DNA of 64,000 nucleotides from Psilocybe cubensis (GCA_017499595.2 CM038999.1:310001-374000); one strand, 5' to 3'; shown: positions 24,176 to 51,558, counted from the stretch's first letter. Notes: generated by a model from the sequence alone, not told the origin. Numbers and translations: made by a program.

Positions 24176-24248
24176 GTTGAGAGGCCACGACTTGGAAAAA
24201 TGTATAAATCTCAAACAAAACAAAACCTTGATATCATTGTGACAAAAT

Positions 24249-26754
24249 TTAATCAGCCTCGTAACGAGTTCCGAAGATGCCTTCTTCGATTGCCTTAATT
24301 TCTGTGACGGTCATCATATTAGATTAACTAATTCCCTCTTGTCAAGGATCTGCACACTTACGGAGAGTCAAGTGGGTAGAATGGAACCTGCATAACGCAA
24401 GGTTACCTGTAGGTCATCAAGGAGTTGAGCTAAACCAAAATTCCCTCCCACTTTAATAGGCCGCGGACAACTCACCCATCATATACCACAGCCCCGGAAC
24501 ACCGAGGCCTTTCCACGTCCCGTTTAGCTCCCCCTCTTTATCAAGACCCCATATCGGCTTGCATTTTTTGGCGACTTCTTCCCCACAGACCCTGGCGACG
24601 TGCTCCTTACAGTCCCCAAGTCTGGGTGACAAACAAATTAGTGGGTGGTAAATCGAAGAGATTAGTAGATAGTAGATTACCCGGTGGCGAATATCACCAC
24701 ATCGGCCGCTAATTCTGTTCCATTTTCAAACTTGAGGCCAGTCTCCGTGAAGTGAGAAATTTGGCTATCTGATTTTAGCTTGATTTTTCCGTCTGCGATA
24801 AGCTTGCTTGCGCCAGTATCTTTTTGCAAAAAATCATGTGAGCATTATTCTTATGATAAGTAGTAAGGCAGGACACACCAAGGTAGTAGCCTCCAGCCTT
24901 GCTCCAGGCTAGAAGTCCGAATCCGGTATCTAGAATGCCCATATTGGTCCGGAATCCGACCTTGTGCAGGGAGTCGAGAAGGTCCCTAGTTCGGCGTGTT
25001 AGAAGAAGCTTATGATATACTATACTCGATGAGCATACTTATCCAGATCCGCTATCTGTTTTGCAGCTCGCTGGTTCAGACCAACAGCCATATGGTGTGG
25101 GAAAGACGCAGACATGCGATCCACAATATCGGCGGGAGGCCCGCCTTCACAGTATCCTCCTAATAAAACGTTAGCACAAGGCCTAGAAGGAGTAAAGGAC
25201 AAAGTTCGCCTTTAAAAATGACATCCCATCCATTCTTTGTAGTCATGATATAGGTGGAACCGCGTTGAAACATTGTCACGTCTAGAACAGTGGATGTAAA
25301 GCAAAACGAAGAGAACGGATTCAACACGATGGCTTACCGACACCATGGTCGTAGTAATCCACGGCAATATCATGAGCTAAATATCAAAGGATGAGTCCAA
25401 TCACTACGGGGCCAAATATTTAAAGCCTAATGACCTGAGGTACAAGCGCCTACAATTATCACCTTCTTTCCTGCGTGATCCAAAGCACGCTTGTGCTGAC
25501 TCGAATGGAGAATCTGTCCCTTGAATGTGTCCTATATGATGCCAAAATTAATGAATTTGGTAGTTCAATGCTCAAACGAAATTTCACTAACCATTCCCGG
25601 GTACACGGGTGTGTTTGGGGTAGGACCACTCAATCCCGTACAGAATACGATGTGATTCACTACTAGCTTCCTCTCGGTACCATCCTGGCGTTTAATCGTC
25701 ACCTTCCATTTATTGGTACTCGGGTCTTGAACAGTTTCCGTAATATTAGCCGATGTCCAAACATTCAATTCCATTGCATCTGCATAGAACTCCAGCCAAT
25801 TTGCAAGCTGCGAAAATACATTGAGAAAATGAAATTCACATTCAGAACAAAAGTACTTTTTTAGCTGGAGCGTAAACTGGCCAAGTCGCAGGGAATCTGG
25901 CATGATGTCAGCGCTGGCAGGAACAGAAATAGAACGGTCCAAAACACCGACGGTATAAATGGCATGTGATCATACCCTGAGCAAAAAAAACAGGTAAACC
26001 CCATGACTCTACGTGCCTGTACCATGAGAGACTCACAGACTGGGTCATGTAAGCATAATGCTTCATATCTGTTTCGCCAATTGTCGCCAACCCTTGGGTT
26101 CTTGTCAATGATTAACGCCGACACGTCTAAAACCTTGAGCCTAGCTGCCACTTCCAGTCCACTTTGTCCTGCCCCGATAATGAGGACAGTGGGGTCTTTG
26201 TCCAAAAATTCCACTTCGCGCTGGCGCTCTGACTCCCACCTTCCATGATTGGGGTCCTGATCCCTCAAGGGACCTGACTTTTCAGGGAAGCCCGTCAAAT
26301 TCTCCAGGTTCGTGAATACAACATGCGCCTTCCACTCTCCATTTGGGGTGGGAACCAATCGAGCAATGCCGGATGCTCCACCGACGCCGGTCATGAAATC
26401 GAACATAAGGCTTATCCACACCAGATCTGGGTAGGGCTGCTGCAGGCCTACGAGTTCTTGACGGATCTTGAAGTCGTGCAGCTTCGACAATCCGAGGCGG
26501 TCAGTGAGGAACTTGGAAATTTTTTGTTTGCCTGAAAAGGTACGCAAATTCCAGGTTAGAGCGAGCATGTCGCGCCAAAAGGCGTCAGGGAGGAGTAGAG
26601 AGATTATCGCGTCGACATCGCCTTGAGTCGCAGCCGCGGAGAACGAAGCCAACCAATCATTGGCAATCTTTTTGGCATCTACGTCTAGTGAGACGGACGA
26701 AACACCAAGGTGGTCGAGCGTGGGGAGCGGTGCAGCAGGGAAGTCAGTTGCCAT
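24249..26754 (-). CDS. Flavin-containing monooxygenase (type II FMO-like, with N-terminal extension)
   Basis: FWRDMLALTW N-domain; FAD motif IIGAGQSG; GDNWRNRY..LHDPV; HSSQHKRA..KKVIIVGACTS; GGYYLD; VIFATG; many introns; TAA at 24249-24251. Confidence 0.92.
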
Positions 26755-27428
26755 GCTTGAATTGTATGTACCAACCAAGAAGAAGAGGGTGTAGAAAAAG
26801 CAGGGTTCGCCTTTTGTACTTGGGAAGATATTGCCCTGGGAATTCTTGCAGTCGGGTGAAGATTCTTCGGGAATCGTTCGATGCATTGGATTGATAGAAC
26901 GTGTGGCGGTAGGCCGAAGATCACTTGAAGATTACAGATACCCCATGAGGATTCTGATGCATTAAATTCTGACATTTTTGTATAATCAGGAAGAGATAGC
27001 TGAGTTGCACATCGTCCACAGAGTATAGGCAAACATTGTACCGTAAATGAATCGTAATTTAAGTTCAACGCTAGCAATCAGTAAATTGAATCATCTTTAC
27101 CAAAAATGTATTTACCTTTATTATTAATATACCTGTTCCTTGGGAAATATTAAGGAAATGATATCACGGTGGCGGGGTGAAGCCGCAAGCGGTTCTAATA
27201 TAAGAGATTTTCTGCGGGTATGCTAGAGTAAGCACAAGTGCCTGACTTTCAAGACTGCTGGAACTGACACTACATTGCTAGAACACCATAGAGAAGGTTC
27301 CATAACTGGATACAAAGCAAATTGGAACCAACGTTAGTTCGGCATATACCGTTGGGTGTAATTGAGGTTCACTTTAAGAACCCACCTGTCACCCAATCTC
27401 CCCACATTGCCCTGTTTCTACACCTCCA

Positions 27429-28006
27429 ATGTCGCCATCAGCCAACTCAACCCTGCTCGAATGGAGCGTCCGAGTTCGATGCGATGAACACGAAATTGGT
27501 GGAAGCCTCTCAGTTTTCATCTTCCTCTCCAACACCGTCCCCCCAAACCCCGATGAATGGCTATTTGAGCGGAGTTTCGCAGGGACATTTGACCTCTTCA
27601 CCTCTTCCTCCTATGGGCAAGCAAGAGGGCAGGCATCTGGCGAAGCATATGCAACGAACATCGCCAAGGGTTTCATTCACATAAATCGAAAGTACCTCGA
27701 GCTTACCCGACAGAGCTCGCTCGAACCCGAAATTGTAGTCCCGTATCTGAAGCAACACCTTAGTTGGGGTGTCAGAAAGGCAAGTCCATGACCAATCAGC
27801 CCCAGGTACTAACACTGACCTGCTTACTATTATGACAGGCGGACGGAAAGGTTGTGCAACTGGAACGTTTCACATCCCTTGAAGTGACCGTGCTATGTAC
27901 CCCGCTCGAGCTCCCTATCGGTGCAGACTACCCTATAGAAGGTGAACCAAAGGTCTATCCTGAAATCACGCGGGGCCGATTAGGTGGTGACAAAAGTGGT
28001 GCCTGA
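27429..28006 (+). CDS. Stand-alone tyrosinase C-terminal (shielding) domain protein, ~172 aa
   Basis: EWSVRVRCDEHEIGGSLSVFIFL..P.NP.EW..GFIHIN..SSLEPEIVVPYLKQHLSWGVRK|ADG..SLEVTVLCTPL..P.GA.YP..GEP..YPEITRGRLGG follows the C-terminal domain of agaric tyrosinases; GC-AG intron 27780-27838; no catalytic exons upstream. Confidence 0.8.
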
Positions 28007-29072
28007 AAGCCCACGGTTTGCGCACAGAGGCCATTGGAACTGTAATTGAAAAATGTAACTATAACAGACAGGTTGAGTCACTATGAACCTTACCTCAATT
28101 GGTCGATATGTGAGTATAGGAGCATTTATTGATTAAGTGGGTGTATTTGAATAGGAGATAGACTCAGGGGATCTATTAAGAAACGCATAAATGGCTCGAT
28201 TCCAATATCAAAATGCAATAAAATAGTAGACGCACCAGATTGACATTCCGAACACGGCCTGGAGCTTCGCATCCCTCCCAAGAAAGTTTGTTGTCTTTTT
28301 TCCAAAGGCAAATGTAACATTAAGAACCTAAGATGATGGAGCTAGAGGTACATAAATTTACGCTTTAAAAGACAAAAAATGCATACTCACTCCTGAAAAA
28401 ACCCCTGACGCCTAATGCTTGGATTCAGGCCTATGGACTTGACATTCCAAACGTGTAGCGCCTTCTGAAAGATAGCCAGGTAGTGTTGCCAATGAGGCTG
28501 AGATTTAAATGTCTCTTCGTCGATTCTTGTCGTATTTGGTTTTTATGTAGAATCACTGTTGGGGTCAAGGCCAACAAAAATCGTGCAACGTACTTTCGGA
28601 TACTGCCGCAGACATGCTTAGTCATGAGACACACCAGTGACCATGGCACACCAACACGCTTTCGGCATGTTCGGCATCCTATTTGTGGCAAGAATCCCCT
28701 TTTTTCTCCTCCCAGAATGTGGATAAACATTTTCTGGAGGATTCTTTTGGCGACGGTAAGTTCGGTGTTATGGCTGACTTCTGACGGGTACAGCTTGACA
28801 AAGTTTGCCCGTCCTATCCAGGGTAGTATGCTTTGCGCTGTAGGGTTACTCGGGTGGTGGTCAATGAAATTATATTTAGTAGCAATCAAGGGCAAACCCT
28901 GCATTCCTGTCGTAAAACGTGTATCTATATATAATGTTTTCAATGAACAGAGATTTCATTTCCATCATATATCAATTTTGAAAGGTGTCATTCCTTATCA
29001 AAACGACGGGATTTGTCTCTGCTGAATTTCTTTATCAACGACCTTTACCATAACGCGTACTAAATCGGTCCT

Positions 29073-30072
29073 ATGGTCTCAACACTTTTCAAGTCATCTA
29101 AAATGCCTCAAGAGCACTTTAGAGTTCCGTTATTGTCATCTGTAGAGGACCCGCAAATGGCAGCGTCGCCCGAGCAGCACATTTGTGTCTGTGATGCATG
29201 CGGCCAAACTATCCAAAAGGCTGAATTTCAAAGAGGCAACAATATGTGGCTCCAGTGGACTATCATCGTGTGCCTCTTGTGCACGATATTTAACTGTCTA
29301 GTCTCCATCGACATTTCACCTCCAAAGTTTAATCGTTTTATCCCTGCAATCCACAAAGGGCAATACAATAGCCTCAAACGACCTTCACCATTCATCGGTC
29401 TCGAGAAAATTCAGACGTCAACATCACCAAGAACTCTCATTAACTATCCGCAAGTTATCGCACAGATTGACGCGAGCAATCCTCGTAGGATATTTGATGA
29501 CGACCCCAAGCGGTATATGTCCTTTACTGGTTATGTGTCCCCTGAAGATCGAAGAGTAATGGTGTCTCCTTCGGTAAGCAATTTAAAAATCATATTTGCT
29601 TTTTCTGACCAACAGGCGATTTAGATATCTACAATTGTGCAATTTCGGGCAATCGACTTTGGGATGGAAAAGTGCGAACTAAAATTGCTGATTCCTGCTA
29701 ACAGGAACTCTTCATCTGGTCTCCCATTCCTTCTGTCAATACATCGCCTAGAAACAACTCAGCCGATAAATACGAAAGAGCTATCCTTCCACAATTCCCC
29801 ACGTCGACTTACAGCGGTCGCCAACCTGGAATTTTTCCCCAATACCGGTGTAGCATGGCAAAGAACTTTCCACTGTGCCTGGGATGACATCTTAACCTTT
29901 GACATTGGCTGTTCGGATGAGGTTGGGTTTCAGTCAGATGCTTGCTCGCTGGAATGGTGGCAAAACAAAGAGGAAGACAAACCTACCCAAGGTAACGTTG
30001 GATTTGACAACTTTCTGTGGCCTGACTCACACAATTTCAGGGATCTTTATGGTGCAGCATTCTACTGTGTAG
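29073..30072 (+). CDS. But2 C-terminal-like domain protein with single N-terminal TM anchor
   Basis: LKRPSPFIGLEKI, NYPQVIAQID, |ISTIVQFRAIDFGMEKCEL, LEWWQ, IFMVQHSTV*; introns ~29574-29624 and 29992-30040. Confidence 0.75.
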
Positions 30073-30529
30073 CTGGTTCTCGAGTTAGCATCTCCCTATT
30101 ATTCTTTATATTCCTTTGTCGTCTTTATCCATTGTAATAGTACGCTCCATAGTGTGGTACGAAAACATACAGAAGGGCCATTAAATTAGATGTTAATCAT
30201 GAAGTTATAATACCAGTATCTAGCTAAAGTTGTATCGAGAAGGACAATGCTAATGTGAAGCTACATGTGTGACCAGGTCATTGGAAGAAATTGATGTAGA
30301 TAGCCAAGAACAGAACCAACTGTCACTGGTTCCGACCCCGACTCGGGGAAATAGCAGCACCTTCCTTTAAGTCGCGGATCATAACAGCGCAGCAATTTCT
30401 GTCGTCGTCGTCAGGTCGGACTTGACTCACAGCGTATCTTGAGCGAAAGCCGGGGATATGTTTATCAATCAATTGCATGCCAGTAAATTGACCCCTGTCA
30501 GTAATCAGTATAAAATCTATTAATAGCGT

Positions 30530-31177
30530 TCAATTCCATAATTCCAACCACTGCCTGGAGTCATCCCAGCGCTGATCGATGTCACCAAACACTATCTCCC
30601 AGTTGATACACACTGATTCGGGTCCAATTGGATCCGTATCAAAGTTTCGCTTCATGAAATCGCCCATCTCCAAAGTATCTGAAGCCGAACAGAGCAACGT
30701 TTGACGCAAATATTGGAAGCAATGATTAACGTGTTCCAGCGTTGCGATCGCGTCAGTCCTGTCTTGAAGAGCGCGCTGGAGTTGAAAGATGCAGTGAAAC
30801 TGATGGTAGAATGTAAACAGGAGAGCCCGTTTATGCTCTCCTAGGTGTATCCTCCCCATTCCCTTTGGCTGGTCGGTCAGAGTACGCCAGAACGCTGCTT
30901 CATTTTTGTCCGTGGAGTTGAACCTTGGCCAAATGCTCTCCTGGTACGTCAAGGAAGCATAGGATATAGGAAGCGATGGGTGAACAAATGGAAAATCGGC
31001 TCCGATGTATGAATAAGGTTCTGGGTCATGGTTAATTCAAGAACTCGAGTAAAAGAGCACAGTATGCGTACCTTTTTTGTCTCGGGATACCAACGTCTTT
31101 GCGCCATTCCAAAATGCTAAGGACACATTAAACAGTGCTATTGCAGCGAGGAGTGATTTTGCTCGTGTGGAAATCAT
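30530..31177 (-). CDS. DUF3328 / UstYa-like oxidase (canonical double HxxHC)
   Basis: N-terminal TM exon, YSYIGADFP, FYHQFHC and HVNHCFQYLRQTLLCSASDTLE, CINW. Confidence 0.92.
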
Positions 31178-31277
31178 AGTGGAATGAGAAGAAATGAAAG
31201 GCTGTGTGACCTTTATGGTTAGAGGCGTTATATATATTAGTTGCCCGTCATCTTCTCGTAGAGTCTCATCTTTTCTG

Positions 31278-31903
31278 ATGTCATCCTTCCGCCTCAAGCT
31301 GTCCTTTCGTTCTCTCCTCCTAGCTATTCTCATACCGATCTCCATAATTCTGGTCTGTATGCGTAGTTTAGCTACGCAACATTTTGACCTTCCGGATTCT
31401 GTCACTAGTGCTTCAACTTCTGCCTGTGCGATATTTCAACACTGATAAAATCCGTCTTAGATAACTTCCTACTCAAAGATCGAGGGACGCCTGTAGCAAT
31501 GCTCCTTCAAGGACGAACTTCCCACTACCGTATAGACGAACCTGACGCCAATGAAGAATACAGTCGTCTTCTACCTTCCGGGGGTCATCTGGTCCACTAC
31601 CCAGACAGCGACGGCAACATGAAGGAGTATACGGTCACAATATTTCATCAATTGAAATGTTTGAACATCGTTCGGGAAGCATATCTTAACGATGCGTCGC
31701 AGCCTATTTCAAGATTCACGAGACACTGTATGACGTACCTTCGGCAAAGCCTTCTATGCAACTTGAATATCGGTTTAGAAAATACGGTAAATGCGGCAGC
31801 CAGTGTGTCTCGGACCTACAATGCTCTATGCTTTGATTGGACCAAAGTCTACGCCGAAGCTGAGAAGAACTATCAGAACACACGTGGTCAATCCACTCAA
31901 TAG
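31278..31903 (+). CDS. DUF3328 / UstYa-like protein (variant motifs HQLKC / TRHC)
   Basis: TM exon from ATG 31278, intron ~31408-31460, LLPSGGHLVH, TIFHQLKCL, FTRHCMTYLRQSLLC, CFDWTKVY. Confidence 0.88.
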
Positions 31904-32703
31904 AAGGTAGGTGTTGATTGACTTAATCATGAAAGTTTATTGAATTTGTTGTTCAAGGCCAAAGGTGGCATTTCATCACCACCGAAGATATTTTTGCAAG
32001 AATATTTTGACATAAATATGATCCCCAATACAACCTTGATTAAAATCATGTAATAACGGAACAGAGTCAGATACACGCTGGAAAGGTGTCTCTTTTGACA
32101 TTGAAATATCGGCCGAATATCTCACATGCATTAAGTTCTATTGAATCGTAAAGGGTTTAACCCAAATGGGTGGCACAAATTTATGTTCATGTGTTAACTC
32201 CATCACGCTCCCGCCATCGATAGGTGTCCGTGTTGTCAATGGATATCCGCTAAAACGAAAGTGAATAACGAATTCTCGATCCTTACCTTTCTAACCACAA
32301 CCACAAGCTTCGTATCCATCTGAATTGCCTTCCAAATGTCTTTGGATCCCAGTTGGCGGCCGCAGGAGGATGCGGGTACAATACTGAGCGAACGAGCGTG
32401 GCTTGCAGGGATCATCCTATCTGCTGTTGCCTATGGAATCGTCTTCACACTGTTCATTATGTCCTTTCTCCAGTTGATACGTACCATCAACCGCCGGAAT
32501 TTTGCTTCCAGAGTTGCATTGCTGGTGTATATCTTCTTGATATTCCTCCTGGGCACGTTAATTATTGGATCTGGAGCAAAAATGACTCAAATGAGCTTCA
32601 TCGACTATCGAATGATTCCAGGCGGTCCAGGTATGAATTAAGTCTCTCAGAGAACCATATATTTACGAGCTTACCTATTGTATCCAAATCAGCCGCATTC
32701 GAA

Positions 32704-32717
32704 GAGGTGGAATTCTC
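32704..32717 (+). repeat. Target-site duplication, left copy (GAGGTGGAATTCTC); right copy at 49321-49334
   Basis: Exact 14-bp direct repeat (15 bp with the preceding A) inside the host exon on both sides of the element. Confidence 0.85.
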
Positions 32718-32887
32718 AGCCTTACCTGCTACCTGAACCCATCACATACTGGAAACTGCCAGGTGGGCAGTATATATCTAGCCTGGCAGTTTCCAGTTGC
32801 CACATTTGATGCATTCGCCGCGTCTGAGCACGTGCTGGGCAGCTGCACCAAACAATGCGTCAATACGCATGCCGGCCGTTCGGAATA

Positions 32888-35800
32888 CTGTACCCGACCC
32901 TGAATATGGCCATTTCGGAATGTTCTTCAAATTGCGAGCGCCTTGCCAAACCGTTTGCTACAACTTTTTTTGAAAAACGTCGGCGTACATCTTAACTTTA
33001 ACATATAAAATTTTCAGATTTTTTGAGTGTTTTGAGGAAGGGCAATGAATATTTTCCTACCGAAACCCCAAAATGTGGCTTTACACGGCAACCAGCCAGG
33101 CGTGGGAATCTTGGCATTATTGACCGCAGTCGATGCTCGCGATAAGGATTCTCACCTTTTCTACGCAGTCATCATCAACGTTCTTGCTCCCTCGTCCATT
33201 TAACACCAATCGGCTAAAGGTAACACTTTGTTTGTACATTTTTCATATGAAATAGCCACTATTTACGAGTTTTACGTCTAGGATACCGTCTTGCACCAAC
33301 ATCTTCAAGGTTGATAAGTGGTGGGTCAGCTGCCTCAACCGTTGGGGGCTCAGCTTGAGCATCGTTGTTGTTGCGAAGAGATGTTGGATTTGGTTGATGA
33401 TGGGCTGGTGGAGGCTGAGGTTCTTCAGGTGCGATGTATACAATCATCCTTATCCTTTTCCACTCTTCATCAAAAGCCACTGTTGCCAGTCCCTGATCCG
33501 AATCAGCATCATCATCAATGTGAGTCTCAGTAACAGCTCGTCTGGTCACCCTTTTCCTGCCCCCTCCCCTTCCACGTATATGAACTTGTGCTCGGACTTT
33601 TGCTGCAGCTATTTCTTCAGCCCGCTTTACCTTTTCTGCAGCCTTTTCTGCAGCCTTTGCCTCTCGCTCCTTTTTCTTTTTCTCTTTCTCTACTTCCTTT
33701 TCAGTATCTCGCCTCTGCTTCTCTGCCTCTCGCTCTGCTCGCTTTGAAGCCTGTTCTGCCATTCTAACCTCTAGTGCAGCCTCCTTCTCCGCATCATCAA
33801 TTGCCTTCCGCCTTGCCTTTAGTATTTTATTTGCTTCTTTTAACATTGCTTTCCAGCCCTGTCGCCACTCAGCCTCTGCAAGTTCATCGAGGTTCTCGGT
33901 ACTAGTCATATGGCGGGGATTTGATGATGAGTAAGTCTTCTTTCTAGTAGTATCCCGGTGATATAAGAGTTGTCGGAGGCGCTCATTCTCCTTTACCATA
34001 ATTGTTTTTGTTGCATGGTCCCGTTCGATTTGGATTTGCATATCATCGAGTAGTTTTCGCAGTTGTGATATTTGTAATCGTAGTTCAGGGCGTCCGGCCG
34101 TATGAGAGAGTGAAGGAGGTAATCCAATTAAGCGATATCGACTCGAAACAGATGATGCTGAAGACATAGTTGAGAGTATAGTAGGTGCCGCCTCAGACTG
34201 TGTGCCTATACTGTGCTCACTTGGTGTAGACTGTGTTGCATCTGATGTAGTGTCTGATTAATTGTATGTAAAAAAATGATACATTGACTTACCTGGCACA
34301 ATCTCGAGAAGTGGAGTAAGATCAGATGTAATGGGTAGAGCAGCCTGAGTTGTTGTGTTTTTGGATGGCTCGTATGCTTCTAATGGAATAATTCCCGGAT
34401 TGATAGGCCAGATGCCGGTTTTTGCAAATGCAGAAATAATTGTAGACCGTTTGAATGCCTTTTCTCGTGCAGTGTGGTAATGTCGGAGAAAGTTAAACTT
34501 GGTAACAGGAATGCCGTCGCGTGTTAACCGGTTTACCAGTGATTTCCAGCTATTGGATAACGGGCTGAAAGCACCAACATCACAAGGCTGCAACACATGG
34601 GTAGTATGGGAAGGGAGGCAAACAATGACAATCTTGTTCCGTTCTGCAAAGCGGCAAAGCTTGAAAGTGCAGTGTGAGTTGTGACCATCAAGTATAAGCA
34701 ACCGGTACCCTCCAGATGTGTTGCGCTCTTCTGATTTTGGATGAAAATCCCGCTCTAGCCACATGCTTCCAAGCTCTTTATCAGTCCACCCATTTTCTGA
34801 AATAGATAAACTGTATTAAATGTATAAAATATCTGAGTTTGCATTATATACAATATAACAGAAAGTCTACCTAGCGTTAGATGGATTATCCTTTCCCCAT
34901 TCCAATATACGCCGCTTTGCTTGATAGATAACTGATGGCGAAAGTGATGTGCCATCAGCACAAATGGTTTCAATAATAGTCACCATTTCACGGTTCCCAT
35001 TTTCAACTTGTTGTATATTTTTCTGTGTTTTGTCAACAATTGCAGAAACAGCTTTTCCAACGCCAAGTTGTATTCCTTTTTCATCTGAGTTATAGATGTT
35101 GCTTGGTATGATATCATATTCCTAAATCAAGGAGATCTTTGAATTATGTCATATCTAGGGATGATATTTTTACATGCCTCGATTAGATCTTTGATCATCA
35201 CAAAAAACTCTCCAACAACTGTCGGATTCAAAGAGCGGGCCCGACATTCCTCAAGTGCAGAGGTTTTTTTGATTTTAAGATCAGTATGTCGTTCCAAAAA
35301 CTTCCGGGGCCAGTTGATACCAATTTTCTGTTGTGATATTTCCTGAAAAATAGTACAGTATAAGTAACAGATTACCAATCACAGCACATACAATATAACA
35401 AAATAGCACTTACTGAAGCATATTCCCGAAGCATGTCCTGAGTTACAGGAAACCCCCGTCGTCCTAATGTCTTTGCCCAATCAACTAGAATACTTTCTTC
35501 GGCATCTGAAAGTGCACGTTCGCCTGCATGTGCATCACGTTTGGTTTTGACTCCATTTAGCCGATTAGTCAACATTCCACGCTTGACACTGTAAATGCGA
35601 CACGCCTCCCGGATTGACAGTGTATGCTGACCATTAGACTTTAAAGGTGAGGACATAATGGCTTGAATAGCTTCTTGAATCCGATTTTCCACAGTATTAT
35701 TGATAAGATCTGGGATGTCATCATTGGTAGAATCATGTGGAAAAACAGGAGAGGTTGTAGACATTCTGTGAGTAGTTGAGGAAGAAAAGCGAGTACAGCT

Positions 35801-39566: not shown

Positions 39567-39995
39567 CTAAGTTCTTAGTGAGTACATATACAAATATTTA
39601 AATCATGTTATGTTTGTTTGAGAACATACAGTTTGTAGAATGAGGGAGACTTGGACGTCAAAATTTATGCTTCTAGGCAGGAAGTTTTGGTTGAAAACAC
39701 AGCCTACTAACACGGTCATTTCGTTAGCGCAATTCGCAATGCCTTTGAATCAAACCAAACCACTGGAGTTGTGAGTCGGAAATCATATTAGGCATGAATG
39801 CCAAGTTTACATTTACAATTTGAATGATACCCTAGAGCGCTAGTGTTCACTAGGTTATGTACAGTCAAACCAAGTCAGCACGTCGACAAACCAGCTTGGA
39901 GTTCGGATGTTTTTATATATTTTATCTTTCTAATTTTTGATCACTAACAGAAACTTTAAAAGCAGATTTTCGTGAAGCATTCCGACCGACAAAAA

Positions 39996-41691: not shown

Positions 41692-41889
41692 GGCAAAGGT
41701 GTATTTTGCAAAGGGTATGCTGTAGGGGACGTATCTCACAACTTAGTTTACACTGGTACTTTACCAAGCTTTTTTTATTTCAATTTCATATGAGATTGGC
41801 TGGCTCTTTGGGGTGTGATTGTTGCTCAATGCACGTGAAAAACATTCAGATATTGATAAAAATGTAAAATGAAATTTTACTGAACCAAA

Positions 41890-42465
41890 TCAGTGAACAG
41901 GCGAACCACCTCGGTAAGAGTTGCGTCCATGCAAACTGATCCATTCCTCCTCAGTAATGCCATGAGCCAGCGCGCTCAGGCGTATCCATTCTTCCTCCTC
42001 ATCCGGGTCCTCCTCTTCTTCCTTTGGAGGGTTTTGTTTTTTCCTACGTAGATAGTTTGTATACTAATGACTTTGACAATAAAATAAAACATACCTGTAG
42101 TAAATTTTGGCCTTAACCTTCAACGTGAAACGGTTTCGTTCACGATATCTAGCCTGGGCCTCACGATGCTTCTGTCTGCTCAAAGCAAGCTCGTTGTCAG
42201 GCAGACTCTTGCGACTGATGGTCATGAATGAGGTTAGGTTGTAACATAGTATGCGCACGTTGGACATACCGTTGATAACGCTCTTGCGATTTCCGTCGCT
42301 CGCGTTTGCAGTTGCTAAGAAAGTTAAGTTTGCGTGTAGTTAAGTTTGCGTAGGTTGATTGCGTTGACAGAGACCTACGTACGCCTCATAGTAAGCACGT
42401 CTCCGTCTGAGATACATCTCACGGTTTACAGTTTTGATTGCTTTTGAAGCGCGTTGGCGTGCCAT
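41890..42465 (-). CDS. Small Arg-rich, bZIP-basic-region-like cargo protein (4 exons, ~135 aa)
   Basis: Spliced reading MARQRASKAIKTVNREMYLRRRRAYYEANCKRERRKSQERYQRRKSLPDNELALSRQKHREAQARYRERNRFTLKVKAKIYYRKKQNPPKEEEEDPDEEEEW..GSPVH* with three GT-AG introns. Confidence 0.7.
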
Positions 42466-43062
42466 TAATACACGTAGGGCAGAGTATAACGGTGTTTGAT
42501 AAAGAGGCGATCACAATGTTTTGAAGTCAGGCAAGGCTTGAACGGCAAGGCTAGAACAAATACTTACCTAAAAAGGTATGAACCGAGGCGGGTCAAGTGT
42601 AGTTCACACAAAGAAAATTCTTTTGCACAACATTGCGTGCGGCTTTCAGAGAATTGAAAAATACCATAAATAATCTAAAATACGTTTGAAGACGTTTCTG
42701 AAAAAAAAATTTTTTTGGTGTATCCAAAGTGCATTATGAGGACGTACGTACATACGTGGATTGTGTGCAGTGTTCGAAATATCACCATTTTTGTAACTAC
42801 ACTAATGCTCTAATTTTTTGACAAATCAATTCTCCCAAAGATTCTCTGTCTTTAGACACTGTATTCATAGCGTTAGAGTCACAATTAAGCATTATACGAG
42901 GCAAAAACCATCAAACCGAGATCACCATAAACATCACCCGAGATCACCATACGTTAGCCTGCTTTTACACTACTCCAGCAATTCTCATCTCATTCCTTTA
43001 ATTTTTATCTTGGACTGATTTGATTCACATCTGCTATATCAGGAAGTATCTAATGAATGTAA

Positions 43063-44470
43063 CTATGCAGTGGTTTTGGCATTATTTGACGTAGATAACA
43101 GAGACAATCCCAACTTCCATCGTGTTGCGTTAGCTTCCTCGTCTTGCGCACGTTGCTCTCGAGTCAGCTTCGCCAAATAACGCTCACGCGTCATGAAGTT
43201 ATTCTCTACCCATCGAAAGATTCCGCCCGCTGTGTACTGCGCGAATGAATAGCGACGTTCTGTTTCCTTGATGGGCACGTTGGAATGTGTAATCAGGGCT
43301 GAGGGGAATAAAATGGTGCACCCAGGTGGGAACTCGATGACAATCTTAAGCTCCCATAATATCAAATGGCCTCCTGCTGTGTAGTCGAAGTCTCCCAGGG
43401 CGGTTACGGCGCACCAGCCAAACGCAAGGTTTGCGAAATCCTTGTGCTGGAAGCAGGTTGTCCATGGGCCAAAATTATACGACACAGCACTAAAGATGCT
43501 GTCAGGGAAGATGCGACGGAGCTTGGGGTGCTTGGAATGTAGTTTTGAAAGCGTTGTGGCATAGTACTGATAGAGCTGGTTTGCCCACGTATACATGACA
43601 GCTGCCAATACGTTTTCAGTGCGCGCAGTTGTCCAAAATGAGGAGAAACTTACATGATGCGAAACTGGAGAATCTCTGGAACGGTTCCATTGCGTTTAAC
43701 TCGGCCAGGACTTCGGCGTTTGGCTTGGAATTCTTAACGTTGCCCGGCATTTTTCGACCACCTCCGTGTGATACGCCACAATTGAGAGAAATGAAGGCTC
43801 CTCGACGATGAGTTTCGTCCTCGATTGGGATGCAACACCGATCGCGTCGAGCCTCAATGGCAGCAGAGGCCTGGCGCTGAAGATCTTGCCAGTAGGGGTC
43901 GTTAGGGTGGTTTGCAATTACCCCAATGACATGGTTACTCGCATCGACAATCGGAGTAGATTCGCTGTAAGATCGAAGGCGTATTCGAGACTGGGGACTA
44001 GTTGAAACGAAAAAAAAAACTTACCCTGTGTGCTTGATCAACCGGAACTTGTATTCGGACTGCTCTCCCACCAGATCTTCCAACGTATACGCCCTATCCG
44101 ACGTAGGCCCTTGGTTCAAGGCTATGTAACCCGTGCTGGAAACAGGGATGTTTTCCGTTTGAAGGTCGCAGTGCGCCGGAGCCGATTTGTCAATGAGTTT
44201 GCTGTGGGCCCGAGCGCGAACATACGCGTCGGCCGCCTTGGATTCTTTCTGACGTTTTTTTGCCCGGGTGTTGTTGGCCGCCTTATTTCTTTTGACAACT
44301 CGTTTTTGCTGGCCTTCAGTGAGAGGGCGCTCCAGGGGTGTTGATGCGTAGGTAGTGGAGGCGATGGGGGTGTGAATACGAGGTGCTCGAAGATCAAACC
44401 CCGGGTCTTGTAATGCCGCCACAATGTGACCGGGGAGATCGAAAAACGCCTGCAACAGGGACGTGTGCAT
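43063..44470 (-). CDS. TET/JBP-family 2OG-Fe(II) nucleic-acid dioxygenase
   Basis: 3 exons; HRRGAF..GVSHGGG; NFGP..CFQHKDFAN (HxD); GGHLILWEL..EFPPG..PSALITHSN (distal H); RYSFAQYTAGG (2OG-binding R); lies next to a KDZ transposase. Confidence 0.88.
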
Positions 44471-44539
44471 CCTACGGTTTACGCGAGTTGTGAAGAGTTA
44501 GCTATGGGTAAGCGGTTGGGGCACAAAGGGTTTAAACCT

Positions 44540-44624
44540 CAGTGTATGTCCGTGCCCGAACATTCCTGAGGAAAACACCGCCTTTCGCAGTCCAACAGTG
44601 TATGTCCGTGCCCGAACATTCCTG
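44540..44624. repeat. 29-bp perfect direct repeat in the divergent TET / transposase promoter
   Basis: CAGTGTATGTCCGTGCCCGAACATTCCTG at 44540-44568 and 44596-44624. Confidence 0.9.
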
Positions 44625-44856
44625 TTTTCTTGCCAGAGGGAGGGTGTGGAAACAAAGGGGGAAGGAAAGAGTGCTTGAAGACTTACCTTTCACGTTCAAA
44701 TGTTGGTTGAGATCTAAGCGAGTTGGATTGACGATGACGACAAAGATTAATGAATATTTCCCACGAGCGCGTGACTGCACTCAATGATTCCGAGTAGACC
44801 CTGAATAATGGTGAGTTGTCAATGCAAGCTTTTTACCTTTAACGCATAACCTTAAT

Positions 44857-47800
44857 ATGTCAAACTCTGACAGGCCCTCTAAGCAATCACGCACTGGTCA
44901 TTCATCATATCACGACACTGTGCCCAGCTTGAATAGGCACGATGTCATCCACGTCAGCGAAGGGACAATTCGAAATATAGGAGGAGTTTTTCGAGCAACT
45001 CGCAGATTTGAGTCGCCTCAACGTGTCGCTGGAACTTGGGAGCAAGTCACGTCTTGGGAACCGCCGGATGACGAAGAATATGCTTTAAATCCCGACGGGG
45101 ATTTTTACAATACCGTCGTAGATCAGGAGGTGGTGGCCGAGGATGGCACAAAAGACACTGTAAAAAGACAACAGAGCAAGGTTTCGGTAAGAAATGAGTA
45201 CGTTATGACAGCAGTAGACGCTAAAACCATGCATAGAAACGGCCTCACGTAGTTTGGAAAGAGACCCACCGTGAAACATATCTGGAAGAGATTCTTCGCT
45301 GGGCCGGGCGCGGTGACTTCCGCCATGCTACACAGTGTCCAGACTGCCTTGTACGAGGAGTAACGCCCGAGACTCCTGAATTCAGGTGTCGCGAATGCTT
45401 TTCGCCTGACCTCGTATGCCAGGCCTGCTGTGTGAAACGCCACAGATTACATCCCTTTCACCGAATTCAGGTAAGCTGTTTGGCATCCAGTTATCATCTA
45501 ATATTATCTTTAACATACCTATCTTGTAGAGATGGACCGGCACCCACTTTTTGGCAGTTTCTCTAAACACAATTGGGGGAAAAATTCAGCTGAATCATTC
45601 CAGCGGGTATTGCGAAAACCCAACGCCGTGTCATGCCAGTTTTTTGGTGCTCCATACGAATGGAATTCATTCGGTCAACTTATTTTACTGTAACTGCTCC
45701 AGAGCTATCCCTCATCACTTGCAATTACTCCGACGACGGCTATACCCAGCTTCACAAATTACTCCAAAAACAGTTGCAACTTTTGAGTTGCTGCGTCATC
45801 TCCATAAAATGGCATTAACTACCAAGGCCTCGACATATGACTTTTATCGCGCTCTTGAAAAGTCAACAAACAACACAGGGATTAACCTCCCACCCTCGCG
45901 TTACCCTGCACTATTCCGGATGATTCTTCAATGGCGGCATTTACAAATGCTAAAGTGGGCGGGGAGAGGGCATAGCCCCACAGGGGCTGCAGGTACAGGC
46001 GAGGGTGAGCTTGCAATTCAGTGCCCGTCTTGCCCACATCCCAGTATAAATCTTCCTGTTGGCTGGGAAAATGCGCCAGACGAAATGAAGTGAGTTATAT
46101 TGATGTTCACTAGTATCCGATAGCTAACGTTACTACAGATTCCTCTATATGGTTATGATATGCATGGACGCCAACTTCCGATTAAAAAATCAGATGGTGT
46201 CTAACTGGTCTCAAGACCCTGGGCTTGGAATCGGGTGGGCGTATATGATACCACTCAAAGGATATGAGGAGTATGTCAAGAGCCGGCTGTCAGACAAAGA
46301 CGTAAGATTCAAGAGTTTGAATAGCTATTGGTTACTGATACCGGGTCTAGATAAGCACATGCGTTGGGTTTCAAGCACTAGCCAAGGCCAATACAAAATT
46401 TTCAATTGGACTACGTTACACGGGCCTGGGACTTACAGTATGCGGTCGCTCAGAGATGATTATGAGAGTTGGAAATCTACATAAGGGAGAAAGGTGCGTG
46501 CTATCAATTTAATGCTAGATGAATTTGTGTTCTAAGAATTCATAGATATGCCAACATGGACTACATTTTTGCTTCAATTCTTCGAACATTGGCTGTACAA
46601 TTTGTGCTGGCAAGCTACGATATAGCTTGTCAGTGGTTCATCAATCTTCTTCGGCGAATCGAAACACAGTGGCCAGATGAAATCAAGCCACGTTCCAACA
46701 TCACACTGATGCCCGCAATCCCCAAGCTGCATGAGCCAATGCACAAGCAGCAAAATCATGAGCTATACTCCTACAACTACATGCCTGGTGTTGGTTTATC
46801 AGACGGAGAGTGCCCCGAGCGTGTATGGGCGCCGCACAATGTCCTGGCAAACGCAACCAAGACTCAGGGTCCGGGTTCACGACATGACACTCTTGACGAC
46901 CATTTCGGCTTTTGGAATTGGCTCAAATATACGTCGATGGGAACTACGTTGCTTCGAAAGTATAAAAATGCGGTGGCTCAGCGAAATATTCAGACAGAGG
47001 GCCATCGGGGCTTGACAGATTCTTTGGAAGACCCAAGACTTGTGCCTGCATGGGAGAAAATGTGTGTCGAATGGGAGAAAGATCCCTTTCCAAAAACCAC
47101 AGCAAAAAACCCATATTATGTGAAGGAGACTGGTAAGTGATCCCACCTATATTCATCTATCATATGCCTGATTAGGTATAGGTGCATCTGAAGCTGAAGT
47201 CAAGAAGGCCCTTCACGATGAAGAGGCTGAATTTTTATCTAAAGGTGGAACGTTACCGCACAAAACTACCCCGTCTGTCTTTATTGGTATGGGCCTAGAC
47301 CTTGAGGAAGCACAGTAAGTTATATTCCTCGTCTACAACATAAGACTTTAACTTATAACATGGGTGCAGGCGGCGACTTAAACGGCTAGCTACCAACACG
47401 AGTGCAGATGCCACTATTCGCCAAGAAGGCACACTCACGGAGCAGCAAAATATCCTCACTACACGCATTCGGGCATGGGAGCAACTTGTTCCCATCTATA
47501 TGCCAGGACTGCTTCAGTATCAGACAGATAATCCGCCGACAGAGCAGTCAACGCACGCCGAAGACATTGTCCTGTGGCTTCCATCAATGGTACCCGCAGA
47601 ATGCAGAGAAACTATCTGTGTGGCCGGCTTGGCTGATGTCGAACAGAAGCTGCGGATGGCGCATATGACCGACTCTTTGAATGCAATACGGCAGATTCTC
47701 AAAATCAAGTCACGAATGATTGAATTCAAAAATAAAAACATACGAGGACAACGTGGGGGAACCAGGTCAACGTCAGTTATCGACCGCGTGCATGAGCGTG

Positions 47801-48624
47801 CACGATTTGCAGCAGGAAAATATCGTGCAGCTCGGAAAGCTTATTTCGAGTTGGCAGGACCTGGTAACTGGGAGCAGAATTACCGTGTACTTGCAGACGG
47901 AGATATTCGAGCATATCAAGATCCTGCTCGGCTAGGACCCAGAAAGGGACGCCGCGGAACGCTTGATGATGAACAGGTCGCGGCAGGGATGGATGTAGAG
48001 AATCAGCCAGAAGAGGGGGATCTTTTCCTGTTCAACGAGGAGCGCACCAAGCGTCAAGAATCGGGTCAGACACGGCGAACTCTGTCATGGATCTGGACGG
48101 TTCGTACCAATGCTGCAGACACAACAAGCGAAGAAGAGAAAGATGATCTCTTGCGTGTTGAATGGGCGAGGAGCCGAGCTAGGGTCATGCGCGCAAAAGA
48201 GGAGGTTTCGATGTTGAAGGAAGAGATGCGGCGAACATTAGTGTTTTTGGACTGGAAAGCTGCCTGGTGGCGAGAACGCAAAAACGCTATCTCTAACGCG
48301 AGTAGCGATCGCTTGGAGGCCATTTCCGCATTTGCCATTGTGCAAGCTGACCTTCAAGATTCCTTGGCGGAGCATTTCCGAAATCTGTGGCGGTCTCCAT
48401 TACAAGAGGCAACATTGCGTGCTGCAGGTTCTTCAATTGCTGCCACTGAGCCCACATCAGTTTCTTCGACTGACCCTGCCTCGACATTGACATTGCTTGG
48501 AGATGGAGATGAAGGTGATGATAACGGTGACGACGACGACGAGTACAACGAGGAAGAAATGTTTGAAGAGAGTGGTGTGGAGGAGTTGGATATCACTGCA
48601 AATAGTGTAGCAGCATTGGTGTAA
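44857..48624 (+). CDS. CxC2-domain KDZ transposase, apparently intact
   Basis: CPDC..CRECF..CQACC..H..HPFH; NGIHSVNLFYCNC; LYPAS..PKTVATF; CPSCPHP; MDANFRLK; KGERYANMDY; SYDIACQW; IPKLH; DGECPERVW; LSWIW; EWARSRAR..EEMRR. Confidence 0.95.
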
Positions 48625-48785
48625 ATCAACATTAAATTCGTAGCTACATACTTTACATGCAATTTAGAACGATATGTCGACGAGGAAAAAGGTTACAGAA
48701 ATGCTGCCAAGCAAAGGTGGATAGCTGCCGCGTGCAGATAAGCTGCAAGAGATTCCAGCGGGAGTATGACGCGGTATGACGAAGT

Positions 48786-49320
48786 GACAGGAACCATCCA
48801 TCGCGTCTAAAAATACGCCTGCATCAGAGGCAGTGCCAGGCCCAGACCAGGGTGGGCAGGGGTGGGCCGAGATTGCGTCTAAAAATATACTTGCATCACT
48901 GATGAGTGATCATCAGGAGGCTGTGCGCGGTCCAGACCAGCAAGGGCGGTGTGGCACACGGCTACTGCACCCGCGAACATCCCAATCGGGAAGGCGCGCA
49001 TTTAATTCCCCCGCGTCATCCAAACCCACCCCGACCAATCCATCCCGCCACCACCCCCGAACCCTGCGCAAACAACGCCGCCGCATTCTAGGCGCTGCTG
49101 GCTACCGACCCGTATTTTTTTCAGCCCGAACGGCGGCCCCAACGACGAGCAACGCTATTCCGAACGGCCGGCATGCGTATTGACGCATTGTTTGGTGCAG
49201 CTGCCCAGCACGTGCTCAGACGCGGCGAATGCATCAAATGTGGCAACTGGAAACTGCCAGGCTAGATATATACTGCCCACCTGGCAGTTTCCAGTATATG
49301 ATACATCAGGACAGCAGGTA
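48786..49320. repeat. Right terminal inverted repeat of the KDZ element (~535 bp)
   Basis: Near-identical reverse complement of 32723-32887 + 36636-37055, differing by small indels of subrepeats and in the outermost ~25 bp. Confidence 0.95.
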
Positions 49321-51198
49321 GAGGTGGAATTCTCTAATCCGATAGACGAAATCGCAAATGTGGCCTATGTACTCGCCAACTGGTTTGCAGATGGGATGCT
49401 CGTAGGATTTTTGTAAGCTCGTATTGGAGATGCCTGGTTGAGTGATCGTCTATAGGTATACCGATGTATGGTCATATACAGAGGATGTAGATTCCCTCGT
49501 TTTCTAGTCATCGGAATCCCTGCCACGGCGTACCTCGGATCAGTTAGTTAGTACCTTTCCACTCTACGATTTTCCATGGCTTACCCAGTGCTTTAGCTGT
49601 TGGGATACTGTGGCTGACACAAATTTCTGCCACCTCACCATGGGTAGCAGGAAGTGTGAACTTTACAGCGCCTTACTTTTGGCTTTCTCTTGCGCTCAAC
49701 ATAACAATGACAATTGCCATCTGCGCCAGGCTCCTCTTTTTCCGCAGAAGAATGCGAACTGTCCTAGGAGAAGGGCATGGATCACACTATACAAGCATAG
49801 CGACAATGGTCGTCGAGTCCGCAGCGATTTACTCTGCCTTCTCTTTATGCTTCTTGATCCCATTCGCACTTAACCATCCGGTGCAAAATATATTCATTCA
49901 AATGCTGGGCGAAGTACAGGTAAGTGTGCACGTGTGTCGTAAGTTAAACGCTAAATCGTTTCATTTATAGATAATAGCACCCCTTCTTATCACGTATAGG
50001 GTGGCTTATGGAAAAGCTTGGACTGATAAGACCACTAATCAACTTCTATCTAGGAACAAACAATCTCAAGATATTCGAATGAGCTACAAAAGAGGGATAT
50101 CTGCAGCTGGTGTATCTGGTAATTCTCACACACTGAATGGTTCATTCAGGGAGGAGATTATGGCCAAGGATTCCGATGATGGCACTTACGTTCAGGTCTG
50201 GACGGAAAAATCGATAGCGTAATAAGTAGATAAGAATGATTCACATTGATTTATGGTCGCTCATCTCGTAGATTTTGATTCCATTTAATTTATGCAGTTT
50301 CGGCAATCTAGCTGAGCAGTTGAAGGTCCATTTTCCGAAGACCACCGGTGTTCGCCGAAAACCTTCGGTATATGCCGTGGGCACTCCTCTGTACAGACTA
50401 TTCGATCCGAGTCATCTAAGAGAAGTAAGTTGAAAACAAATATAACTATAACAGTACCCGGGAAATCTAATAGAGCGACGCTAAGATTGACTAATTTTAG
50501 ACCGAGATCGTGGTCATGGAGAGAATGACCGAGATGGGCGCTTGATGGGCGTTATCTCACATTGGCAAAGCGAACAGGTTTATTCGGTACAAAAAAACAA
50601 TAGGGAGCTTGGCTCTGTACATTTAATTAAGGTCAATCAAACGCCCCACCTTCATAGTATGTATGTCAATGCAACATTCACTTGAAACGTTTGTTACTAC
50701 CAGCATTTCATCAATAACTCGAACTCTGTAAGTGTTCCGCGGGCCGGGCCCCGGGTCCGCAGTAAAGGGGTGAGAATCCCAAGTTGAAGACGTATAGTGA
50801 ATTAATTTACACTACCTCTCCATCAAGGTACAATGGTTTCGAATATCTAGAACCATGTTTACCGTTTACTGACATGAAATGGATCTGGCAGACCCATGCC
50901 ATTTTTATTTCTGTGACCCGTTTCGATCATGTCATCTAGCTACGCAGCACTATTGATTCATTCTTAGCTTCAACTGCAACTCTCATCCACAGGAATATGA
51001 TCGAGTATGGTGAATTATAATGACAAGCACAGATTGCCACTTCTCACATCAGTAGTCATCGTGAGTAAGTTTGATTCTGGGATCCGGTGAGACTCAAAGT
51101 CGTATAAAGGCCTCGATAATCTTTTAGGTACACATTATAACCGTCCTCACACCGCTCCAATTGTTTTATCAAACCAATAACTCAATAAAAACAACACC

Positions 51199-51558
51199 AT
51201 GTCCCGTTTCTTCTTCACCTTTACCATCGTGGCGTGCTGGCTCTCTCCCCTCATTTTTGGCAAGTTGATAGGCTAAAACTAGGAAGAAAAGCACTAGAGA
51301 CTCATTTTCCTTTAGCCATTCCCGTTGAATACCCAGAGCACATAGTGAACCATATACCTGTGGCCAACGTGGCTTCCTCAACAAGTGCCATTGTACTTCC
51401 AAGCGGCACCCCAATAGGTGGTAAGCAAACATTTAGTCCATTCATTTGGAGGATCGATTCAAATCGACATACACCTAGGTATATGCACCATTGAACACGG
51501 CTGCCCTCCCCCACCGCATACATGTGACAGCTTTGATGCTTGCCCCTCCTTCCCCTAG
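51199..51558 (+). CDS. Small secreted Cys-containing peptide, family member 1 (81 aa, 3 exons)
   Basis: Exons 51199-51259, 51316-51420, 51479-51558 (first intron GC-AG): MSRFFFTFTIVACWLSPLIFAIPVEYPEHIVNHIPVANVASSTSAIVLPSGTPIGGICTIEHGCPPPPHTCDSFDACPSFP; TATAAA ~95 bp upstream. Confidence 0.8.

Follow-up and report, generated by a model that had tools for sequence, protein, structure and literature searches.

The locus described here raises the question of whether two adjacent DUF3328 (UstYa) genes in the mushroom Psilocybe cubensis belong to a biosynthetic cluster of the kind that makes ustiloxin. The two genes, U1 and U2, lie in a stretch of 64,000 nucleotides (GCA_017499595.2 CM038999.1:310001-374000, hereafter the window) of fungal, intron-rich DNA. 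A first-pass annotation of the window had placed them in a DUF3328 cluster for a ribosomally made, post-translationally modified peptide (RiPP), lacking a classical Kex2-repeat precursor, with a flavin-dependent monooxygenase (FMO) and a tyrosinase C-domain protein as further members and small secreted peptides as possible substrates. A real DUF3328-centred cluster without a Kex2-repeat precursor is indeed present, but the proposed further members and substrates were found in none of 21 related loci (0/21). What has been conserved instead is a set of four genes: U1, U2, a But2-like gene and a gene for a protein with seven transmembrane (TM) helices (7-TM). Judged from sequence, these four very probably form a real co-inherited unit. 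That this conserved core is a four-gene membrane-protein module of mushroom-forming fungi and not an ustiloxin-like cluster, working by the mechanism proposed below, is a fuller reading to which we give an even chance.

The DUF3328 pair

The window was scanned with Pfam as 450 stop-to-stop open reading frames (ORFs; 123 + 118 + 115 + 94), and chosen exons were scanned separately. Five public runs contain the core, and four of them were compared with the window over positions 22000-34600. Runs X1 and X2 have spliced contigs with GT-AG joints and are therefore RNA-like, while X3 and X4 have DNA contigs. The X1 and X2 contigs leave 28.7-32.9 kb uncovered (But2-like gene, U1, U2 and the beginning of the 7-TM gene), a gap that carries no information on expression. 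The four genes, and the transposon that interrupts the last of them, are located as follows.

29073/29103-30137, plus strand: But2-like membrane protein gene (sequence, Atlas and homologues; 3' end uncertain)
30530-31176, minus strand: U1, canonical DUF3328/UstYa protein of 198 amino acids (aa) (Pfam, NCBI P0001)
31279-31903, plus strand: U2, DUF3328 paralogue of the half-site clade (Pfam, sequence)
32336-32717, plus strand: 7-TM gene, 5' part, cut by the transposon (sequence, reading frames)
32718-49334, no strand assigned: KDZ-type transposon of 16,617 bp (X3/X4 contigs, inverted repeats, Pfam)
32888-36635: nested DDE_1/HTH_psq (pogo-like) element of 3.7 kb (Pfam, contig ends)
49335-50222, plus strand: 7-TM gene, 3' part (frame open over the empty-site junction)

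U1 and U2 are divergent, with 102 bp between their start codons, and each has a single intron (31021-31071 in U1, 31408-31460 in U2). In the exon scan the UstYa family (PF11807) matches U1 with 39.5 bits and U2 with 43.7 bits, the cut-off being 25; in the ORF scan it scores 39.4 bits at 30533-31036 (minus strand) and 43.4 bits at 31409-31900 (plus strand). Our model of U1 is identical to the NCBI protein P0001 ("Oxidase ustYa"). The NCBI model of U2 (P0162) begins 27 codons downstream and so is left without the TM helix; read from the upstream ATG at 31279, U2 has a hydrophobic N-terminus, as seen in its Panaeolus homologue P0165. The closest database relatives are P0002 (70% to U1) and P0163 (71% to U2), each on a single 10,179-bp Logan contig. 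Among the strain differences, five of the eight listed in exon 2 of U2 are synonymous and no indel is listed in U1 or U2, a substitution pattern that suggests functional genes.

The two proteins differ in their copper motifs. U1 has the complete HxxHC(x)nHxxHC motif (HQFHC...HVNHC) and is predicted to bind copper, whereas the motifs of U2 read HQLKC...TRHC. A search with U1 returned 650 representative proteins at E<=0.001, mostly of about 200 aa, and all 16 named entries that were looked up come from Agaricomycetes. Every one of the 50 aligned U1-type sequences keeps the four His and the two Cys of HxxHC(x)nHxxHC, and another two Cys are likewise invariant. The search with U2 gave 23 relatives, found in Psilocybe, Panaeolus, Pleurotus, Suillus, Hypsizygus and Mycena. 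Together with one added UniRef variant these form a set of 24 proteins, all of which have HxxKC (24/24, K82 invariant) and keep four Cys, and none of which has two HxxHC motifs (0/24). In this half-site clade the second His of motif 1 has become Lys or Arg, and the first His of motif 2 has been lost. A quick maximum-likelihood tree separates the U1-type from the U2-type proteins by a branch of 1.65 changes per column with a Shimodaira-Hasegawa-like approximate likelihood ratio test (SH-aLRT) support of 100. The order of accessions or locus tags was also tried as a stand-in for synteny, but none of the species among 20 proteins looked up contributed both a U1-type and a U2-type entry.

The closest biochemical model for U1 is CctR, the cyclochlorotine hydroxylase of Talaromyces islandicus, a binuclear copper enzyme that depends on O2 and electrons and forms a disulfide-linked dimer (PMC12435403). 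The same work describes DUF3328 enzymes as lumen-facing, disulfide-linked homodimers. Four His and two Cys per CctR monomer bind two copper ions, and mutants with these His or Cys changed to Ala are inactive (PMC12435403). The AlphaFold2 (AF2) model of U1, with a predicted local distance difference test (pLDDT) value of 81, has an N-terminal TM helix (residues 4-32) and carries the two motifs on neighbouring helices (105-121 and 130-144). U1 is thus predicted to share with CctR the N-terminal TM helix, the two HxxHC helices and the conserved Cys at the dimer interface, and by analogy both U1 and U2 would have a lumenal domain behind an N-terminal anchor. Foldseek returned 160 PDB matches to the U1 model at E<=10, none of which reached E<=0.001.

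A complex prediction of the lumenal part of U1 with U2 scored 0.87, the best of three controls reaching 0.02. Of 78 solved complexes, 51 attained the mark set for this score, compared with 2 of 108 mismatched pairs. Contacts are at least 95% consistent between the runs, and the partner's pLDDT is at least 84. The predicted interface is formed by the motif helices and includes C146/C173 of U1 and C116/C140 of U2; its location on these helices, with conserved Cys pairs, fits the coiled-coil/disulfide interface described for CctR. As a model-based result, the prediction supports a DUF3328-type dimer and not specifically a heterodimer.

Conserved linkage and a proposed mechanism

A scan of metagenome contigs of the Joint Genome Institute (JGI) with the alignment of U2-type proteins yielded 21 related loci of 1-15 kb (given L numbers below), which were analysed by tblastn with the window proteins, by reading of motifs and by Pfam on 196 ORFs of the seven long loci. 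A U2-type gene is present in 16 of the 21 loci, and these 16 fall into seven groups by DNA identity. The other three genes of the window accompany it as follows.

L002, L003, L004, L008, L009, L010, L012, L016, L017: full-motif DUF3328 gene with U2-type gene, 9/16 loci, 6/7 groups
L001, L002, L004, L012, L016, L017: But2-like gene with U2-type gene, 6/16 loci, 4/7 groups
L001, L002, L003, L004, L006, L008, L011, L016: relative of the right-hand 7-TM gene with U2-type gene, 8/16 loci, 4/7 groups

When the window core without the transposon was compared with ten loci by tblastx, conservation extended over the four module genes only, plus pieces of the housekeeping gene COG3 in L016. An all-against-all tblastx of seven loci, searched for additional small conserved ORFs, showed nothing beyond extensions of known genes. 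The DUF3328 pair is variously arranged: its genes stand head to head in L012, in L016 and in the window, are convergent in L010, and are co-linear with the 7-TM gene in between in L002 and L003. The half-site motifs also vary from locus to locus (HQLKC..T[RN]HC in L001-L005, L011 and L014; HQ[LI]RC in L012, L013, L016 and L017; HQLKC..LRGC in L006-L010). In the L006-L010 lineage one of the four copper-ligand His remains, and the conserved Cys are all kept.

The But2-like protein is predicted to begin with a Cys-rich segment in the cytosol, followed by a single TM helix and a beta-rich C-terminal domain in the lumen, and its gene has an intron at 29574-29624. The Pfam But2 family (PF09792) does not match the window's own exons at E<=1. 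The assignment comes from the Atlas, where the gene scores 0.96 (218/256 features shared) to clusters with PF09792 in 13-33% of their members, and from the homologues in L012 (361-723) and L016 (6807-7157). These reach 43.5 and 48.1 bits, respectively, against a Pfam cut-off of 24.2, and match the But2-like exon of the window at E about 1e-10. Upstream of the gene, at 28580-28964, X4 lacks 1-7 bases of the window at each of nine places; six of these small deletions are not multiples of three, and the stretch is therefore non-coding. An ORF at 28625 on the minus strand, considered as a small secreted gene, was rejected because of these non-triplet indels.

The 5' part of the right-hand 7-TM gene is conserved with L001-L004 and L008 (tblastx/tblastn). 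Relatives of the gene share 31-57% identity across eight loci, and the 3' part is 45-58% identical to genes beside the U2-type genes of L001-L004; its Atlas matches are unnamed basidiomycete clusters only. The first-pass annotation had set the cluster between two 7-TM genes, and both flanking multi-pass genes are present, with the correction that the right one is itself split by the transposon. The left and right genes show no detectable similarity to each other, and the left one has no relatives in the related loci (tblastx, ten loci).

The right-hand 7-TM gene is interrupted in its second exon. The transposon has terminal inverted repeats of 165 nt (95%) and CxC2 and KDZ domains at 45.5-47.1 kb. 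Contig ends of X3/X4 at 32717 and 32887 continue at 49335 and 36636, respectively, and since the empty site is found in contigs of these two other runs of the same organism, the insertion is polymorphic. With the 7-TM gene broken, the module may be impaired in the sequenced strain. Without the transposon, 2,679 bp separate the stop codon of U2 (31903) from an ATG at 51199 that begins a small peptide gene, and the 7-TM gene occupies about half of this distance. The earlier description of a 16.6-kb transposon, in whose absence this peptide gene lies about 2.7 kb from the DUF3328 pair, was therefore correct.

Two further genes were seen with the module in some of the related loci. An alpha/beta-hydrolase (Abhydrolase_1/Hydrolase_4, S33-like) is found at L001:3300-3989, L002:1-603 and L004:1477-2265; the three are 60-90% identical to each other and have no relative in the window. 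In L008, an ORF between the two DUF3328 genes (5592-6416) is weakly similar to the middle of the BBE-like oxidase at 9.1-10.4 kb of the window (9354-9658; 35-41%, E 3e-7), a faint hint from sequence that BBE-like oxidases also travel with the module.

Linkage of this kind could arise without any functional unit, if members of multi-copy families (UstYa, But2, multi-pass proteins, flavin oxidases) came to adjoin by ancestry or chance in a variable, transposon-rich region. The region does contain a NACHT gene, F-box genes, three BBE-like genes and two transposons, Pleurotus alone has 16 UstYa genes (PMC8893723), and COG3 is likewise kept beside the pair in L016. However, the four genes remain linked despite changed order and orientation, in lineages whose proteins are only 30-57% identical to those of the window. 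The half-site clade is conserved with its Cys invariant, and the flanking FMO and tyrosinase C-domain genes have not been kept. We consider a chance neighbourhood improbable.

For the four-gene module we propose the following mechanism. U1 and U2 would form a disulfide-linked heterodimer in the lumen of the endoplasmic reticulum (ER), Golgi or vacuole, with the full binuclear copper site on U1 only. U1 would use O2 and electrons to oxidise (hydroxylate, halogenate or cross-link) a lumenal substrate, and U2 would be a pseudo-subunit with a structural or regulatory role. Both the But2 protein and the 7-TM protein would be accessories for substrate presentation, for the supply of copper or electrons, or for transport. 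By analogy with every characterised member of the family, the substrate is most likely a peptide or protein of the secretory pathway. The loss of ligands with the Cys kept, the constant adjacency and the complex prediction suggest U2 as a non-catalytic partner subunit, a tentative assignment that falls somewhat short of an even chance. More doubtful, although possible, is that the module represents an ancient precursor-less system: an obligate heterodimer of catalytic and pseudo-subunit with But2 and a dedicated 7-TM protein, acting on a protein, a single-core peptide or a lumenal metabolite and not on a Kex2-repeat precursor.

Several observations weigh against the module and its mechanism. 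COG3 also adjoins the pair in L016, and part of the linkage may therefore be inherited microsynteny and not selection. The loci stem from a small number of sample series and lack full independence: one exon is shared at 75-79% by L008 and L010, and the hydrolases of L001/L002 and L004 share 60%. A full-motif gene is missing from L001 (10.6 kb), which has U2, 7-TM and But2 genes, and in L019 (4.6 kb) such a gene stands alone. On the family tree (FastTree, with supports not inspected) the full-motif partners are dispersed. With regard to the heterodimer, U2 modelled by itself with AF2 shows the helix order of U1, but the model is weak (pLDDT 59), and the complex prediction ran without our U1 and U2 alignments. 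Moreover, U1 and U2 are paralogues from a homodimerising family, and close cousins of a true partner also pass such a prediction. Finally, the loss of ligands in U2 does not prove lost activity, as conserved extra His residues (GGHLVH) could substitute.

Candidate substrates and neighbouring genes

The remaining features of the window, some of which had been proposed as enzymes or substrates of the cluster, are listed here.

326-1222, minus strand: tyrosinase central domain, cut by the left window edge (Pfam)
4.7-7.1 kb: two F-box genes (Pfam)
9.1-10.4 kb: BBE-like FAD oxidase (FAD_binding_4/BBE; Pfam)
13065-16549, plus strand: large NACHT/NPHP3_N gene, NLR-like (Pfam)
16.8-18.5 kb: BBE-like oxidase 2 (FAD_binding_4/BBE; Pfam)
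19.8-21.5 kb: BBE-like oxidase 3 (FAD_binding_4/BBE; Pfam)
22.8-24.2 kb: left multi-pass (7-TM) membrane gene
24249-26886, minus strand: FMO-like flavoprotein gene with 13 exons (spliced contigs X1 + X2)
27429-28008, plus strand: stand-alone Tyrosinase_C gene, 169 aa (spliced contigs; PF18132)
51199-51491, plus strand: peptide gene 1; its signal exon (51199-51259) is followed by a probable GC-AG intron up to 51315
53.0-55.4 kb, minus strand: COG3, housekeeping gene (Pfam)
56140-56527, minus strand: peptide gene 2 (signal exon by tblastx)
57448-57681, minus strand: peptide gene 3 (signal exon by tblastx)

A conventional precursor was looked for by scanning single ORFs for at least two similar segments between KR, RR or KK. 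None of the 1337 window ORFs of 30 aa or more qualified, although precursors split by introns could be missed, and the same single-ORF scan found no candidate among 2322 ORFs in the 21 related loci. The absence of a classical Kex2-repeat precursor reported earlier was thus confirmed and extended. Tandem Repeats Finder detected nothing between 7.4 and 33.6 kb, no repeat cores were seen in U1, U2 or the But2 protein, and none of the signal-peptide-like small ORFs in the intergenic core was convincing.

U1 and U2 might instead tailor a conventional Kex2-repeat precursor (KEP) encoded elsewhere in the genome, in a split dikaritin-like pathway. The congener P. cyanescens has 19 predicted KEPs, three of them near DUF3328 genes (PMC7329392, Additional file 3 Table S2), so that the classical layout is predicted within the genus, and the RiPP-linked DUF3328 enzymes named in PMC9233826 and PMC7329392 all act on Kex2-repeat precursors. 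The empty scans of the window and the 21 loci, which could have missed an intron-split precursor, speak against such a pathway, as does the finding that DUF3328 genes occur within 15 genes of only 6.1% of basidiomycete KEPs (PMC7329392). An unlinked KEP seems unlikely as the explanation of the pair.

The first-pass annotation was accurate in describing the FMO, the stand-alone tyrosinase C-domain gene, the But2-like membrane gene and the two divergent DUF3328/UstYa genes as adjoining (Pfam and gene models; But2 through its homologues). The tyrosinase and three flavin oxidases that it placed further left were also recovered by Pfam (326-1222 and the three FAD_binding_4/BBE genes). The FMO gene has 12 GT/GC-AG introns in the spliced contigs of X1/X2, one of them GC-AG (25160-25209), and the lower end of its coding sequence, 24249, matches exactly the start coordinate given before. 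Its Pfam matches (FMO-like and NAD-binding, 24680-26931, minus strand) are weak, and its closest solved relative is an FAD-dependent oxidoreductase (PDB 8acs_A, E 4.5e-28). The Tyrosinase_C match (PF18132; 27378-27788, plus strand) has an E-value of 8e-20 and 71-72 bits. RNA-type contigs of this gene cover 27269-28172 with a single GC-AG intron (27780-27838). As no upstream tyrosinase exon occurs in the spliced contigs of X1/X2, and as the product equals a 169-aa NCBI protein (P0003/KAH9484721), the gene is truly stand-alone; relatives of similar kind are P0004 (189 aa) and P0005 (121 aa). The tyrosinase with a catalytic domain sits 29 kb away at the window edge, the adjacent protein being Tyrosinase_C only.

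Neither of these two genes has a relative in the 21 related loci (tblastn, E<=1e-3), nor did Pfam find tyrosinase, FMO, methyltransferase or P450 domains in the 196 ORFs of the seven long loci. Sequence comparison thus places the FMO and the tyrosinase C-domain gene as neighbours in P. cubensis, outside the conserved module, and their proposed membership in the cluster is not supported. A 22-aa tblastx match within the FMO (26766-26831) to L002:9480-9545 was isolated and taken as chance. No signal peptide is visible in the sequence of either protein.

A signal exon of 20 codons (M-x-R-F-[FY]...A-C-W-[VL]-S-P-L-I), a TATA box and an intron of identical phase are common to the three peptide genes; the mature parts are unrelated. 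The genes look like a local family of fast-diverging secreted peptides. A profile of the signal exon found no further match in the window. The first exon of peptide gene 1 starts at the ATG at 51199 and is a hydrophobic exon of 20 codons; the unspliced reading past exon 2 would give about 79 aa, and no set of introns was found that ends at 51558, where the first-pass annotation had set the right end of the cluster. The peptide contains a Tyr, contrary to the earlier statement that the predicted cores lack this residue. COG3 separates peptide gene 1 from genes 2 and 3.

The annotation's own suggestion was that the DUF3328 pair, the FMO and the tyrosinase C-domain protein mature these single-core peptides (51199, 56527, 57681) into a new type of RiPP. 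Other families of RiPP precursors are known to combine a conserved leader with a variable core, and three genes with a conserved signal exon, a promoter-proximal TATA box and very different mature parts fit this layout. Peptide gene 1 lies 2.7 kb from U2 once the transposon is removed, and the signal peptide would deliver the peptides to the compartment that the DUF3328 domains face (PMC12435403). The comparison with the related loci does not bear this out. The signal exon was found in none of the 21 loci by profile (best E 2.3) or by regex search, which is to be read with the caution that small, fast-evolving genes are hard to detect in distant and often short contigs, and the expected synteny of the peptide genes with the DUF3328 pair fails to that extent. 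A 23-aa tblastx match of the peptide 1 exon to L012:6916-6984 has no ATG and no hydrophobic start and was rejected as a gene. Within the window, the 7-TM gene stands between U2 and peptide gene 1, two of the three peptide genes lie beyond COG3, and no motif is common to the mature parts. The FMO and tyrosinase C-domain genes are likewise missing from all 21 loci, and their products, having no visible signal peptide, would occupy another compartment. The neighbouring peptides are thus not supported as substrates, and we regard their maturation into a new RiPP as very improbable.

Other observations concern the surroundings of these genes. GC-AG introns were confirmed by spliced contigs in the tyrosinase C-domain and FMO genes, and a third is inferred in peptide gene 1 (51260-51315). 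At 28173-28235 and 28236-28327, an X2 contig links the 3' end of the tyrosinase C-domain transcript with sequence lying upstream, through a CT..AC joint that represents a minus-strand intron. This joint points to a spliced antisense or convergent transcript, which has no convincing ORF. The NACHT/NPHP3_N gene and the two F-box genes are typical of variable regions in mushroom genomes. Tandem duplications are present at 62122-62658 (period 279 bp, 1.9 copies, 90% match) and at 63666-64000 (period 178 bp, 1.9 copies, 97% match).

Relation to known DUF3328 systems

The dikaritin clusters of Ascomycota (ustiloxin, phomopsin, asperipin and victorin) resemble the locus in having membrane-anchored DUF3328/UstYa proteins of the secretory pathway, often several of them (UstYa + UstYb), and the maturation of ustiloxin involves a tyrosinase and FMOs (PMC7329392, PMC12048977). 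Unlike the present locus, they carry a signal-peptide precursor with Kex2-delimited repeats. The partners here are But2 and 7-TM proteins, one of the two DUF3328 proteins is without half of its copper ligands, and the pair is conserved without the FMO and tyrosinase-related genes. The definition of a dikaritin cluster by Ding et al., as quoted in PMC12048977, includes a UstQ-like tyrosinase and a methyltransferase. Of the dikaritin features, a DUF3328 protein with two HxxHC motifs (U1) is found at the locus; a clustered repeat precursor and the combination of tyrosinase and methyltransferase are not, and Pfam gave no methyltransferase match among the 450 window ORFs.

CctR, the model for U1, differs in being a homodimer that acts on a non-ribosomal peptide, whereas a full-site and a half-site paralogue stand head to head here, with a heterodimer as the predicted form. 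Plant BURP-domain copper peptide cyclases likewise have four planar His and two coppers and perform oxidative side-chain chemistry on peptides (PMC12435403). Unlike U1 and U2, however, they have an unrelated fold, belong to another kingdom and often contain the core peptides within the same protein. The "fungal-RiPP-like" regions of antiSMASH, for example in Termitomyces, are called from a DUF3328/UstY-like hidden Markov model (HMM) alone, without a precursor, and the authors advise caution (PMC11455885). The P. cubensis locus would presumably be called "fungal-RiPP-like" as well. The Termitomyces regions combine DUF3328 with an AMP-binding enzyme, in contrast to the ligand-depleted second DUF3328 protein, But2 and 7-TM seen here.

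Two reviews list dikaritins from Ascomycota only (PMC9233826, PMC12048977). Our literature search found no DUF3328-dependent product from a basidiomycete, no detailed account of RiPP regions in P. cubensis, and no work that treats But2 and DUF3328 together or DUF3328 with the term "heterodimer". As a candidate RiPP-like region the locus is thus ordinary, while no description seems to exist, within the searchable literature, of the conserved four-gene composition or of the half-site clade.

Mushrooms have many DUF3328 genes (Pleurotus has 16, PMC8893723), and mining software labels each such locus "fungal-RiPP-like" (PMC11455885). The module would caution against taking every basidiomycete DUF3328 locus as a dikaritin cluster, and the results make it less likely that the pathway includes the peptide genes, the FMO or the tyrosinase C-domain protein. 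The conserved module offers a defined four-gene unit for study, in which one subunit keeps the copper site that is essential in CctR and the other has lost it. If true, a precursor-less heterodimer system would explain why DUF3328 genes are rarely found beside KEP precursors in basidiomycetes.

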